64,000 bases of DNA, taken from contig CAVYTA010000005.1 of assembly GCA_963771355.1 (NCBI GenBank), forward strand, positions 928,001 to 992,000, read 5' to 3'. Numbering within the stretch: the stretch's first letter is position 1; each line of letters starts with the position of its first letter. The DNA is from an uncultured Candidatus Rokubacteria bacterium. GTDB taxonomy: Bacteria; Methylomirabilota; Methylomirabilia; Rokubacteriales; CSP1-6. The position numbers and the translations under genes are program-made. Of this stretch, positions 28,556 to 38,199 are shown piece by piece. The notes beneath the pieces are model-generated. The model did no database searches and had not been told where the DNA came from. It worked only from the letters and a program-made list of their open reading frames with translations.

Positions 28556-29924
28556 TGAAGCGCGGCCGCGCGGCGCAGGCCGCGCTCCTGCTCTCCCCCT
28601 TCCTGATTTCCCTCCTGCTGTTCCCGCCCGCCCCGTTTTCGGCTGGTCGCTCTCCGTCGGCTCCACCACCGGCAATCGTGTGGCCGCCGGGCGCGGCAGC
28701 TTTCCGCGCTTTCACGCGTTCGGCATCGCGACCGAGGTGCCGATGCGCTGGGTGGTCCTGCTGGACCCGACGCGGCTCGCCACCGTGGATCGCGAGGGCA
28801 CGATGTGGATCCTCGACGCCTCCCGCAGCGGACTCGGCGTGGCGGCGCGCTACGGCGAGGTGGTGAACCCGGAGGCGCCGCCCGCGGTGGTGGCGCTGGA
28901 CGAAGACCAGGTGGGCCTGGCCCTGATCGGCCGCGACGGCCGCCTCATGCTCTGGAGCGATGAGGCCCTGCGGAGCTACGACGTGGGGGCGCCGCTCTCT
29001 CAGCTCGCCGTTCCCACCCCGGTGCGGCTGACCGGCCAGCACTGGGATGATCTGCTCGCGGTGGCGGCGGACGGCGCGGTGGTGCTCATCGGCGGCCTGC
29101 CCTCGGGGCCCCGCATCGTGTCGCGGGTCGAGGTCCGGGCCTTGCCGGACGCGCGCATCACGCTGGCCGACCTCGACGGCGACGGCATGCCGGAGGCGGT
29201 GATCCTGACCGACCCCACGGAGCGGTACTCGCAGGGCTTGCTGGGGGACCGCGCCGAGGCGGCGAGCGTCACCGTGATCGGCGTCACGCCCTTCGGCCTG
29301 TCGCTGCGGGGGCGGCACGCGCTGCCCACCGCCGTCTTCGAGGATCTCGTTCCCGTGCTCGCGCCGCTCGGTCCGGGGAGCCGCCCCGCGGTGCTGATGG
29401 CGCGGAGCACGGCCCAGCAGGGAACGGTGGTCAGCGCGCTGGGCTGGCGGGACGGGGCACTGGTGGCCCTGGCCGAGAGTCCGCCCGCGGACCAGGCCGA
29501 TCGCTGGATCCACGTGGTGGGGGTGGCCGATCTGTCGCGTGACGGCTCACCCGAGGTGGTGGCGGTGCGCACTCCCCATCTGGGCGGCGTGCTGACCGCC
29601 TATCGCCGCAAGGGGGCCGCGCTCAACGTGGCCGCCCAGGTGGTCGGCTTCGCCTCCCACACCGCGGGCTCGCGCAACGCGGACCAGGCCCTCATCGCGG
29701 ACCTCGACGGGAACGGACGGCTGGAGGTGATCGTGTCCCGCCCGTCGCGGGAGACCCTGGTGGGGCTGGAGCGCAACGGCTCCCGCTTCGTGGAGCGGTG
29801 GAACATCCACCTCCGCGCCGCCATCGAGTCCAACCTGCTCGCCGCCGACGTGGACGGCGACGGGCTGCTCGATCTGGTGGTCGCGGATCGGCGGGCGCTC
29901 TACGTGTTCTTCAGCGTAAGATAG
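28555..29924 (+). CDS. Secreted FG-GAP/VCBS-repeat protein; probable frameshift near 28700-28720
   Basis: Signal peptide in ORF 28555..28866; DLDGDG, DLSRDG, DLDGNG and DVDGDG repeats in ORF 28680..29924. Confidence 0.7.
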
Positions 29925-29929
29925 CGGGC

Positions 29930-30670
29930 ATGCGCCCCCGACTCTTCTATCGCCCCGGCTGAAGCAGCTGCGCCAAGACGAAGGAGCTCCTCACGTCTTG
30001 GGGGGTCGAGTTCGACCCGGTGAACGTCGAAGGAAATCCCGCCGGCCTGGAGGAGCTGCATGCGGCCGGCGTGCCGCTCGTTCCCGCGGTGGTGGTGGAT
30101 GGGCGCGCCGTGCACGGCTGGAATCCGCCCGGCTATGCCGCGCTGCTCGGCGTCGAGTATCACCCGGCGGTGCAGCTCTCGCCCCGTACGCTGGCCACGC
30201 GCCTCGACCACATCCTCGCCTGCACCGGGCGGCTGGTAGCGGCGTTGCCGGCCACCGCGCTCGCCTACAAGCCGCCGGAGCGCGACCGCGACCTGCGCAA
30301 TCTCGGCTTCCACGTGTTCCGCCTGGCGCTGGCCTTCGCCGACGGCATGGACCGGGGCGAGTTCCCCGAAGGTTGGCTGCAGGAAAAGGCGCCCGCCGAC
30401 CTGGTCGACGGACCGTCCATCGCGCGCTACGGCGCGCTGGTGCGCGGCCGCCTGGCCGGCTGGTTCGAGGGGGCGGGGGATGGGGAGTTTGCCCGCACCA
30501 TCGCGGTCTACTACGGGCCGCAGTCCGGGCATGATCTCCTCGAGCGCACGACCTGGCATGCCGCCCAGCATCTCCGCCAGCTCCATGTGATGACGGAGGG
30601 GCTGGGCCTGCGACCGCCGGACCCGCTGCCCGACTTCACCGGCCTGCCCTTGCCCGCGAGTCTCTGGTGA
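29930..30670 (+). CDS. Candidate selenoprotein: glutaredoxin-like (U-S-S-C) domain fused to a DinB-like domain
   Basis: ATG 29930 reads MRPRLFYRPG-TGA(29960-29962)-SSCAKTKELL in frame with ORF 30020..30670; LVPAVVVDG cis-Pro motif; GFHVF and WHAAQH His motifs. Confidence 0.78.
29973..30001 (+). promoter_or_regulatory. Candidate bacterial SECIS hairpin
   Basis: Perfect 8-bp stem CCAAGACG/CGTCTTGG starting 10 nt after the TGA. Confidence 0.5.
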
Positions 30671-30686: not shown

Positions 30687-31802
30687 GTGAGCCTGATCTC
30701 GAAGTCGGAGTTCGTGGGGCTGGATGGCGTGACGCATCTCTGCACCGGCGGCGAGGCGCCGTGGCTCCGGTCCCACGACGCCGCTTGTGCGCGCTTCGGT
30801 GAGCTCAAGAGCGCGGGCATGGCCGGGCGCGAGGCGATCTTCGGCGTCTACGGGCGTGCCAAGTCGCGCGTGGCGCGCCGGCTCGGCGTGTCCCCCGAGC
30901 GGGTCGCCTTCCTCGCCCATTCCTCCGAGGGCCTGAACCAGGCGGTGCGGGCGGTGGACTGGCGTCGGGGCGACAATGCCGTGTTCGCGGACCTCGAGTA
31001 TCCCTCGCTGGTCTTTCCCGTCGCGGGGCTGGCCGACCGCGGGGTCGAGCCGCGCGTGGTGCGGACGCTGGGCCATCACCTCTCCATGGATGCCCTCGCC
31101 GCCGCGGTGGATGCGCGCACGCGCCTGGTGCTGGTGAGCCAGGTGAGCTATCTCACCGGGCAGCGCCTCGACCTCGCCCGCTGCGCCGAGCTGGCGCGGC
31201 GACGCGGCGCCTGGCTCGCGGTGGACGCGACCCATGCCCTGGGGGTGGTGCCGGTGCCCGGCGACGTCTGCGACTTCGTGGTGTCGTCCTGCTACAAGTG
31301 GCTGCTCGCCACCCACGGGGTGGGCATCTTCGCCTACAGCGCGGAGCGGGTGGGGGAGCTCGCGCCCGCCACCATCGGCTGGCATAGCGTGGAGGGTCGC
31401 GGAGGCTTCGAGGATCCCCTGGCCATGCCGCTCCGTCGGACGGCGGCGCGGCTCGAGGCGGGCAACCCGTCGCTGCTGCCGCTGTTCGTGCTCGACAATG
31501 CGCTCGAGCGCACCGAGGGACTCGACCTCGGCACGGTCGAGCGTCATGCCCAGGCGCTGGGCGCGCGCCTCATCGAGGGGCTCACCGCGCGCGGGCGCAA
31601 GGTGATCACCCCCGAGGCGCCCGCCGAGCGGGCGGGGAATGTCTGTTTCCTCGCCGACGACGCGCGGGGGTTGGCCGACCGCCTCGCCACGCGAAAGGTG
31701 CTCGTCTGGGGGGGCGACGGCCGCATCCGCGTCTCCGCCCACCTCTACAACGATGGGGAGGACGTGGCCGCCTTCTTCGCGGCGATGGACGCGGTCGGCT
31801 AG
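30687..31802 (+). CDS. Aminotransferase class V PLP enzyme (desulfurase/lyase-like)
   Basis: SSEGLN, VDATHALG, SSCYKWL (PLP Lys), RVSAHLYN. Confidence 0.87.
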   Translation: MSLISKSEFVGLDGVTHLCTGGEAPWLRSHDAACARFGELKSAGMAGREAIFGVYGRAKSRVARRLGVSPERVAFLAHSSEGLNQAVRAVDWRRGDNAVFADLEYPSLVFPVAGLADRGVEPRVVRTLGHHLSMDALAAAVDARTRLVLVSQVSYLTGQRLDLARCAELARRRGAWLAVDATHALGVVPVPGDVCDFVVSSCYKWLLATHGVGIFAYSAERVGELAPATIGWHSVEGRGGFEDPLAMPLRRTAARLEAGNPSLLPLFVLDNALERTEGLDLGTVERHAQALGARLIEGLTARGRKVITPEAPAERAGNVCFLADDARGLADRLATRKVLVWGGDGRIRVSAHLYNDGEDVAAFFAAMDAVG

Positions 31803-37539: not shown

Positions 37540-38199
37540 ATGCCATTCCTCTCCGCGGCCGACGAGCAGGCGGTGCGTCAGGAGTTCGAGAAGCTGAAGG
37601 GCCCGGTGAAGATCACCGTGTTTGCCTCCGAGCTGGGTGGCGAGAACAACCAGCAGACGGTGGCGCTGGTCCGGGAGGTCGCCGCGCTGTCGGATCAGAT
37701 CTCGGTGCAGGTGCTCAACCCGCTCATCGAGCGCGAGCAGGCCCAGGCCTATGGCGTGGACGTGACGCCGGCCCTGGCGGTGGAAGGCGCGGCGGACTAT
37801 GGCATCCGCTTCCTCGGCCTCCCCGCCGGCTACGAGTTCGCCAACCTCATCGATTCGATCATCGTCGCCTCGACCGGCGAGCCGGCCCTCAGCACGGCCA
37901 CCCGGGACGCGCTGGACGGCCTCGGCGCGGACGTGACGATCAAGGTCTTCACCACGCCGACCTGACCCCACTGTCCCCGGGCCGTGCGCCTGGCGCAGCA
38001 CATGGCGGTGGCGTCGAGCAGGGTGCGGGCCGAGTGCATCGAGGCCACCGAGTTCCCGGAAATGGCCCAGCGCTACCGCGTGATGGCGGTGCCCAAGATC
38101 GTGATCAACGACCGCGTCCAGTTCGAGGGGGCGCTGCCGGAGCCGCAATTCCTCGCCGCCGTGCTCGAGGCCGCGGGTGGCGAGGCGGCGAAGGGCTAG
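37540..38199 (+). CDS. Candidate selenoprotein: protein-disulfide oxidoreductase (AhpF-NTD-like double thioredoxin fold), U-P-H-C
   Basis: ORFs 37540..37965 and 37984..38199 are in frame across TGA 37963-37965: VFTTPT-U-PHCPRAV; also GLPAGYEF and MAVPKIVIN. Confidence 0.85.
37981..38006 (+). promoter_or_regulatory. Candidate bacterial SECIS hairpin
   Basis: GCCGTG/CATGGC outer pairing with an inner CGC-CTG-GCG stem-loop, 15 nt after the TGA. Confidence 0.45.

Follow-up and report, generated by a model that had tools for sequence, protein, structure and literature searches.

Thioredoxin-fold proteins with a UxxC motif (U is selenocysteine, or Sec) are the most common type of selenoprotein, and new selenoprotein families are reported regularly. 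Glutaredoxin (Grx) with UxxC is listed as experimentally verified in the available text of a 2026 catalogue of prokaryotic selenoproteins (PMC13188914). A separate group of proteins, a superfamily called S-transferase-like (STL), is built on the DinB-type four-helix bundle: in the B. subtilis enzymes, according to the available text of PMC5815605, three histidines are the sole fully conserved residues and activity is metal dependent. The window that we analyzed, a 64,000-nt stretch of DNA from an uncultured Rokubacterium, contains a gene that appears to join these two kinds of protein and that, judging from comparative sequence analysis, very likely encodes a selenoprotein.

Plain ORF calling recovers only positions 30020 to 30670, with a GTG start. 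The initial annotation proposed that the gene begins at an upstream ATG (29930), 7 nt after a TAAGAT box, that an in-frame TGA falls at the first Cys of a CxxC motif, and that a hairpin with an 8-bp stem begins 10 nt past the TGA. All of this held up when the sequence was reread: there is one reading frame of 246 amino acids (MRPRLFYRPG-TGA-SSCAKTKELL at its N terminus, giving G-U-S-S-C), the TGA is codon 11, and the closing stop is another TGA at 30668 to 30670 (Table 1). A leaderless promoter is plausible, since TA...T hexamers are enriched at 6 to 9 nt before ATG across the genome (80, 90, 60, and 67 cases vs. 5 to 48 at other spacings; 19,194 ATGs); a similar hexamer, TANNAT, lies 6 to 7 nt ahead of the ATG at homologous loci L005 to L009. 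A sequencing error can be ruled out: an independent contig from a soil DNA metagenome covers positions 29754 to 30030 with zero differing letters and shows TGA, not TGC or TGT, and the same TGA recurs at homologous loci. Contigs from RNA runs, which cannot show transcription, cover parts of the gene, and none of the pieces listed spans the TGA. A class-V PLP aminotransferase/cysteine desulfurase-like gene (30687 to 31802, + strand) begins 16 nt downstream and is linked at 7 of the 81 close loci described below.

Table 1. Features of the read-through gene (positions in the window)
Feature	Position	Strand	Remarks
Candidate -10 box TAAGAT	29917..29922	+	7 nt upstream of ATG; overlaps the end of the upstream FG-GAP gene
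Whole read-through gene	29930..30670	+	Grx/NrdH-like domain fused to DinB domain, 246 aa
Thioredoxin-fold (Grx/NrdH-like) domain	29930..30157	+	Residues ~1-76, conserved Pro52; PF00462 E 8.6e-12
In-frame TGA	29960..29962	+	Codon 11; predicted to encode Sec11, which opens the U-S-S-C motif
Cys14	29969..29971	+	Second UxxC position; invariant in the two alignments examined
SECIS-like hairpin	29973..30001	+	-15.1 kcal/mol; loop starts 22 nt past TGA; invariant G at 29986
Second hairpin, 6 bp	30003..30018	+	Directly behind the SECIS-like hairpin; conserved in most Rokubacterial copies
DinB/YfiT-type four-helix bundle	30170..30628	+	Residues ~81-233
His128	30311..30313	+	Predicted metal ligand; invariant in 60/60 aligned DinB domains
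His210-xxx-His214	30557..30571	+	Predicted metal ligands, conserved ERTTWHAAQHLRQ helix; invariant in 60/60

The homologues switch between TGA and Cys at exactly codon 11, so that the in-frame TGA aligns with a conserved Cys, as expected for a bacterial selenoprotein. Our close set comprised 81 loci: the window's own and the best 80 of 126 from genome contigs, with titles that are mostly Rokubacteria or Methylomirabilota and some from Binatia, Acidobacteria, or SAR324. Three of these lack the N terminus; codon 11 is TGA in 77 of the 78 scorable loci and TGC in the other one (L048). This single TGA persists among proteins that are 46 to 89% identical, and the coding sequence is conserved on either side of it. 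For a distant set, we searched metagenomes with an alignment of distant homologues and kept the 80 best of 558 loci. The motif was present in 77 of them (78 matches), with TGC or TGT at codon 11 in 72 matches and TGA in 6. We also picked 52 full-length database proteins by hand; 50 of them have Cys at position 11, and the other 2 have Ser. Just 4 of the best 120 database matches reach the N terminus, and those 4 carry Cys or Ser there; that the other matches stop short is the pattern expected of a hidden selenoprotein. Gene callers and database entries mostly cut the gene short, so the catalytic motif is lost. We also considered whether TGA might be reassigned to Trp. This is ruled out because the aligned residue is Cys and because TGA also serves as the terminal stop codon of this gene and of many homologues, which means that the codon is not reassigned genome-wide.

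We built a FastTree tree with codon 11 masked and a midpoint root; its 120 sequences comprise 35 of the 78 close loci as well as distant copies. The window gene lies within a clade of 36 TGA copies, and L048 is nested there, so its TGC is likely a reversion. Seven other TGA copies are dispersed through a mostly Cys clade, and parsimony gives 6 changes. Several internal supports are low, so any direction of change between Sec and Cys that is read from this tree is tentative.

The stem behind the TGA (CCAAGACG/CGTCTTGG) pairs 29973 to 29980 with 29994 to 30001. The stem by itself is modestly above chance (z of -2.0; 5 of 200 shuffles), so the weight of the hairpin rests on comparative tests. Across 68 distinct 63-nt segments, a 12-pair stem is 89% paired, as compared to 39 to 53% for slid registers. 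Two-sided changes were found in 29 cells vs. 12.6 +/- 2.4 in shuffles (0 of 500 reached this, in a test that is inflated by relatedness), and the RNAalifold consensus has 4 pairs only (-1.2 kcal/mol). A stronger test than covariation is to compare TGA copies with Cys copies whose peptides are similar. All 63 close TGA segments and 7 of the 9 distant TGA segments (70 of 72 TGA copies overall) form at least 6 of the 8 stem pairs, whereas none of the 74 distant Cys segments does. L048, with TGC, retains the stem. The loop G comes from the codon for Glu19. This codon is GAG in all 72 TGA segments vs. 40 of 74 Cys segments; the background share of GAG in the same genes is 0.64 to 0.84. In other words, the hairpin shows two-sided changes beyond shuffles, accompanies the TGA, and is absent from the distant Cys copies.

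The loop (A-G-C-U), its distance from the UGA, and the folding energy all fit the bacterial SECIS (bSECIS) model, as far as the available text of PMC13188914 describes the loop position and the G. This filter is weak in a genome with 70% GC: 63 of 89 scanned TGA sites pass, and we rejected it as a sole discriminator. In the window's hairpin, the upper stem beyond an internal loop is 3 bp long and the loop contains G-C, vs. an upper stem of 4 to 16 bp and a loop G[G/U] in the model; unlike this imperfect upper stem, the stem of many homologues is continuous, with G-U in the loop. For the second hairpin, 83% of cells are paired and 24 changes are two-sided (compensatory), which was matched in 0 of 500 shuffles.

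The window's own genome (99.8% complete) encodes the machinery for Sec: tRNA-SeC(tca) at C7:111447, selA at C7:113232 (555 bits; cutoff 268), selB at C7:114503 (367 bits; cutoff 242), and selD at C4:225335 (266 bits; cutoff 125). SelA, SelB, and the tRNA (selC) are encoded in one 5-kb cluster. SelD has Cys here (GGCAAK) and lies inside an 817-aa open frame, where it is apparently fused to an N-terminal domain. Of 200 genomes from the phylum, 130 have a match to the family profile; these include 110 of the 126 genomes in the window's family, all 16 in a sister family, and 3 of 57 elsewhere. A genome usually has one copy of the gene, which lies in a conserved block of the chromosome, and among the matches listed that span the N terminus, all have one TGA except G151:C139. 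selB was found in 179 of the 200 genomes, and 13 genomes with a TGA copy gave no selB at the threshold used. When the 5 most complete of these were rechecked, two had selA, and one of these also had tRNA-Sec. G175, G138, and G087 contain the TGA gene with no selA, selB, or tRNA-Sec over cutoff; their nominal completeness is 98 to 100%, in 220 to 370 contigs. As the sel cluster spans 5 kb in the window's genome, one unbinned contig might explain the missing sel genes.

Other candidate selenoproteins are also hidden in this genome. The window contains a second one at 37540 to 38199 (+ strand), with TGA at 37963: a protein disulfide oxidoreductase with TPT-U-PHC, which belongs to a known selenoprotein family (TIGR02187, 249 bits; cutoff 185). 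A motif scan, judged by eye, gave roughly 20 TGA-bearing redox motifs, so the candidate selenoproteome is large. We take these motifs to be AhpD-, UGSC-, Prx-, DsbA-, and SelW-like, except for two that were confirmed by an NCBIfam profile; they include several copies of U-G-S-C and AhpD-like CxxU proteins. Elsewhere in the genome (C5:421031-421888), a DinB gene is immediately followed by an ArsC-family UxxC selenoprotein (NF041106, over cutoff). We considered this unfused pair as a parallel to the fusion and rejected it, as the pairing occurs at 3 of 27 loci, including this one. Deng et al. (2026) predict 63 selenoproteins in a Methylomirabilota genome, as cited in the available text of PMC13188914.

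The initial annotation described the protein as a glutaredoxin fused to a DinB domain with its histidine ligands, and both Pfam and fold searches support this anatomy. An AlphaFold2 model built on a 55-sequence alignment (pLDDT 95, pTM 0.89) suggests two domains in a fixed arrangement, with the N-terminal redox domain packed on the DinB domain. The redox domain scores 45.5 bits against PF00462 (cutoff 22.9) and has a thioredoxin fold, (C/U)xxC, and an invariant Pro52, as in glutaredoxins. The best fold matches of residues 1 to 76 are BC3987 (3zij, Z of 13.9), cGrx1 (7c10, 12.2), and NrdH (1h75, 11.9); the domain is equally close to NrdH/thioredoxin-like proteins and to true glutaredoxins, and it has weak similarity to ArsC/Spx-type proteins.

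Residues 81 to 233 score 23.4 bits against PF12867 (DinB_2), slightly below the cutoff of 24.8, and are recognizable as a DinB four-helix bundle by their fold: the best match is DR0053 (6iz2, Z of 16.5, rmsd of 2.2 A over 143 residues), and others are YfiT (1rxq, 14.0), MDMPI (2nsg, 13.5), mycothiol S-transferase (MST, 12.9), and EgtB (11.2). H128, H210, and H214 share the H...HxxxH pattern of BstA's conserved histidines (H67, H160, and H164). A profile of the DinB domain had no significant match to a DinB protein among PDB sequences (best E of 0.54 and 0.99), so the equivalence of the ligands rests on fold and pattern. Across 60 DinB domains from both clades, the invariant residues are R120, H128, G196, R206, W209, H210, Q213, H214, R216, and Q217; H210 and H214 are also invariant in all 52 full-length database proteins. 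We predict that the domain likely binds a divalent metal through the three histidines. Some relatives also carry stand-alone DinB paralogues of this family without the redox domain. Three of the eight that we examined (L085 to L091 and L097) keep the His triad, and five are degenerate, with the His ligands lost; the degenerate ones often lie behind an enoyl-CoA hydratase or FG-GAP gene.

Which thiols are available in this genome bears on what the protein might do. Neither bshC nor gshB is over cutoff in the window's genome; across 21 genomes, glutamate-cysteine ligase was found in none (PF04262) or in one that is not the window's (PF04107), and mshC was over cutoff in none. Given this lack of synthesis markers, it is unlikely that the fusion is a classical transferase that uses glutathione, bacillithiol, or mycothiol (GSH, BSH, or MSH), and the initial annotation's label of a Sec-dependent thiol transferase/reductase is tentative. 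The missing gshA and gshB markers likewise speak against glutathione as the reductant of the redox domain. Thioredoxin reductase is present. The genome also has egtD (over cutoff), an adjoining EgtB/OvoA/SenA-like gene (which stays under all cutoffs), and 22 DinB_2 matches. These genes make it likely that the cell produces a thiol of the ergothioneine type, which the enzyme could use instead of a tethered selenolate. The egtD gene is divergent from the EgtB-like gene (C6:2319777-2324650), and the two are flanked by genes for a candidate selenoprotein (Prx-like, with U-P-K-C) and for a TrxR-like protein; the region is possibly a cluster for an ergothioneine- or selenoneine-type thiol. Proteobacteria generally make glutathione, and some of them (Rhizobium and Caballeronia, for example) host the Cys form, so thiol-poor cells are not the only ones to carry the family.

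We then examined gene neighborhoods. Within 3 kb of the 81 close loci, the recurring genes encode enoyl-CoA hydratase (53 loci), an FGE-domain protein (43), and aspartate aminotransferase (35), which is largely inherited synteny. Near the 77 Cys-clade loci, where we annotated one representative neighbor for each of 67 clusters, TctC (22), MmgE/PrpD (8), and SDR (7) recur; TctC genes are abundant in Burkholderiales. Homologues are also carried by 14 plasmid records of cultured Proteobacteria. Three of the four plasmid regions that we inspected place the gene in or beside a catabolic cluster (leuCD with an isocitrate lyase-like gene; a TPP enzyme, CoA-transferase, and MmgE/PrpD; or an amidase with an isochorismatase), and the fourth copy adjoins tannase and gluconolactonase genes. 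No thiol-redox family recurs among the annotated neighbors, nor does any metal-resistance family recur in either clade or in the four plasmid regions. As the neighbors differ by clade, the close loci share inherited synteny, and TctC is common in Burkholderiales, no single pathway is identified. One protein, P0193, is a 721-aa triple fusion of MmgE/PrpD, Grx, and DinB with C-S-S-C; it is a single protein sequence.

Our view of the function starts from what was observed: the in-frame TGA and its alternation with Cys, the TGA-linked hairpin, the genes for Sec in the genome, and three histidines that are conserved. We lean, with modest confidence in the selenoprotein and the mechanism taken jointly, toward a self-contained enzyme in which a tethered selenolate would replace the small-molecule thiol of DinB-family transferases. 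The catabolic neighbors, and the lack of any recurring thiol-redox or metal-resistance family, would favor a small-molecule enzyme in organic-acid catabolism. A full catalytic scheme, which is metal dependent with Sec11 as the built-in nucleophile and likely serves organic-acid catabolism, is more tentative. SelB would read the hairpin and insert Sec11; the metal at the His triad would bind a small electrophile, for which an unsaturated carboxylate or thioester is the likeliest candidate; Sec11 would add to this substrate, as mycothiol does in maleylpyruvate isomerase, leading to isomerization or transfer; and Cys14 would release the adduct or resolve an oxidized Sec, with thioredoxin reductase re-reducing the site. 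The broadest version is speculative, and we doubt that it will hold in every part: an uncatalogued selenoprotein of the DinB superfamily, near-core in Rokubacteriales and with several exchanges between Sec and Cys, that is a GST-like analogue assembled from other parts and whose tethered Sec replaces a diffusible thiol at a three-His metal to isomerize or conjugate unsaturated organic acids.

The main competitor also accepts that the protein is a selenoprotein: it might be a conventional S-transferase-like enzyme, whose DinB domain binds a free low-molecular-weight thiol while the UxxC domain recycles mixed disulfides or keeps the thiol reduced. The thiol could be of the ergothioneine type, cysteine, CoA, or an unknown one, or glutathione in Proteobacteria. 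In B. subtilis, each of the eight STL proteins is a bacillithiol transferase that depends on metal (according to the available text of PMC5815605), and several features of this system would suit such a role: egtD, the EgtB-like gene, and the many DinB_2 proteins; clostridial Grx1 as the redox domain's best match by sequence; and R120, R206, and R216, which are invariant and could bind an anionic thiol. However, no marker for GSH, BSH, or MSH synthesis is over cutoff, and the redox domain is no closer to true glutaredoxins than to NrdH/thioredoxin-like proteins. We consider this reading rather unlikely and rank the built-in Sec11 nucleophile ahead of it. It is improbable that the protein instead handles As, Hg, or Cu, with U-x-x-C capturing or reducing a soft metal ion and passing it to the His triad and with no organic substrate. 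UxxC plus three histidines would make a two-site metal-binding anatomy, and there is the weak similarity to ArsC/Spx-type proteins, but a usually single-copy gene in a conserved chromosomal block, with no recurring metal-resistance neighbors in either clade or on the plasmids, does not fit.

EgtB consists of a DinB domain and an FGE domain, which raises another alternative: the window protein might be half of a split EgtB/OvoA/SenA-type sulfoxide synthase, partnered by the FGE-sulfatase-domain gene 1.8 kb downstream and by the adjacent PLP lyase-like gene. The DinB domain does resemble EgtB in fold (Z of 11.2, as above), and the FGE-domain gene, found at over half of the close loci (43 of 81), resembles the C terminus of SenA/EgtB. 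But that gene is on the opposite strand (convergent), is missing at the most divergent TGA loci (L059 to L062 and L064 to L080), and forms no recurring cluster among the 77 Cys-clade loci; the linkage is confined to the close clade, the PLP gene is at just 7 of 81 loci, and a full-length EgtB-like gene is present separately in the genome. We view a split synthase as very unlikely. Even less credible is that the TGA is a real stop, so that the gene is broken or the DinB part alone is translated from the GTG at 30020. The stand-alone DinB paralogues of some relatives and the three TGA-bearing genomes without detectable sel genes would fit with a stop. Against it, one and the same TGA is conserved at 46 to 89% identity with coding conservation on both flanks, it replaces the catalytic Cys only, and the hairpin goes with the TGA and is absent from the distant Cys copies.

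The family is apparently uncatalogued. "DinB" does not occur in the available text of the 2026 catalogue of 119 prokaryotic selenoprotein families (PMC13188914), and a term search did not find it in the main text or four supplementary files of the deep-Sep paper. Against NCBIfam (June 2026), neither the window protein nor any of five Cys homologues passes the cutoff of a family; in particular, the Uxx-star families score 28 vs. 66 bits (NF041212), 16 vs. 100 (NF041211), and 22 vs. 97 (NF047338). Our literature search found no description of a Grx-DinB selenoprotein fusion (Deng et al. 2026 or Haft and Tolstoy 2025 may include it) and no characterized function for the Cys form, which RefSeq and the Atlas clusters already include with automatically assigned names ("glutaredoxin domain-containing / DinB family protein"). 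The family links selenium to the DinB/S-transferase-like superfamily, and it is carried by most of the tested genomes of Rokubacteriales, a common uncultured group in soil. Because Cys-form homologues occur in cultured Caballeronia, Variovorax, and Rhizobium, the function can be tested directly.

Among known selenoproteins, the nearest is the clostridial glutaredoxin cGrx1 (Clostridium oremlandii, 7c10), which is the best PDB sequence match of the redox domain (E of 2.4e-12; fold Z of 12.2) and also has UxxC at the start of helix 1 in a thioredoxin fold. However, catalogued examples of Grx are single domains of 80 to 120 amino acids, while the window protein has U-S-S-C and an additional 170-aa DinB domain, and its genome lacks a gshA or gshB marker. 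The N-terminal domain is also similar to the NrdH-redoxin, YruB, and Uxx-star families (TIGR02194, TIGR02196, and NF041212; E of 1e-6 to 2e-9), but the scores are 28 to 38 bits vs. cutoffs of 66 to 89, and the window protein continues for 235 residues past the Sec. With the S-transferase-like superfamily (BstA/YfiT, mycothiol S-transferase, MDMPI, and EgtB), it shares the four-helix bundle (Z of 11 to 16.5) and the H...HxxxH triad, but its DinB domain is fused to a Sec/Cys redoxin and has 6 to 23% identity to solved members. Unlike EgtB, OvoA, and SenA, it has no FGE domain, and the nearby FGE gene is convergent and limited to one clade. Glutathione S-transferases, which Foldseek lists, have an analogous arrangement of a thioredoxin-fold N-terminal domain and a helical C-terminal domain; with a TM score of about 0.28, an rmsd of about 15 A, and a C-terminal domain that is DinB and not GST-C, the window protein is an analogue of these enzymes and not a member. 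The proteobacterial Cys-form proteins (e.g., WP_244817409.1 from Caballeronia and WP_162571355.1 from Variovorax) have the same architecture and conserved residues, but with Cys in place of Sec and no hairpin. The window gene combines a known motif with two known folds, in a combination absent from the catalogues examined, and it is a real gene that is very probably Sec-recoded.
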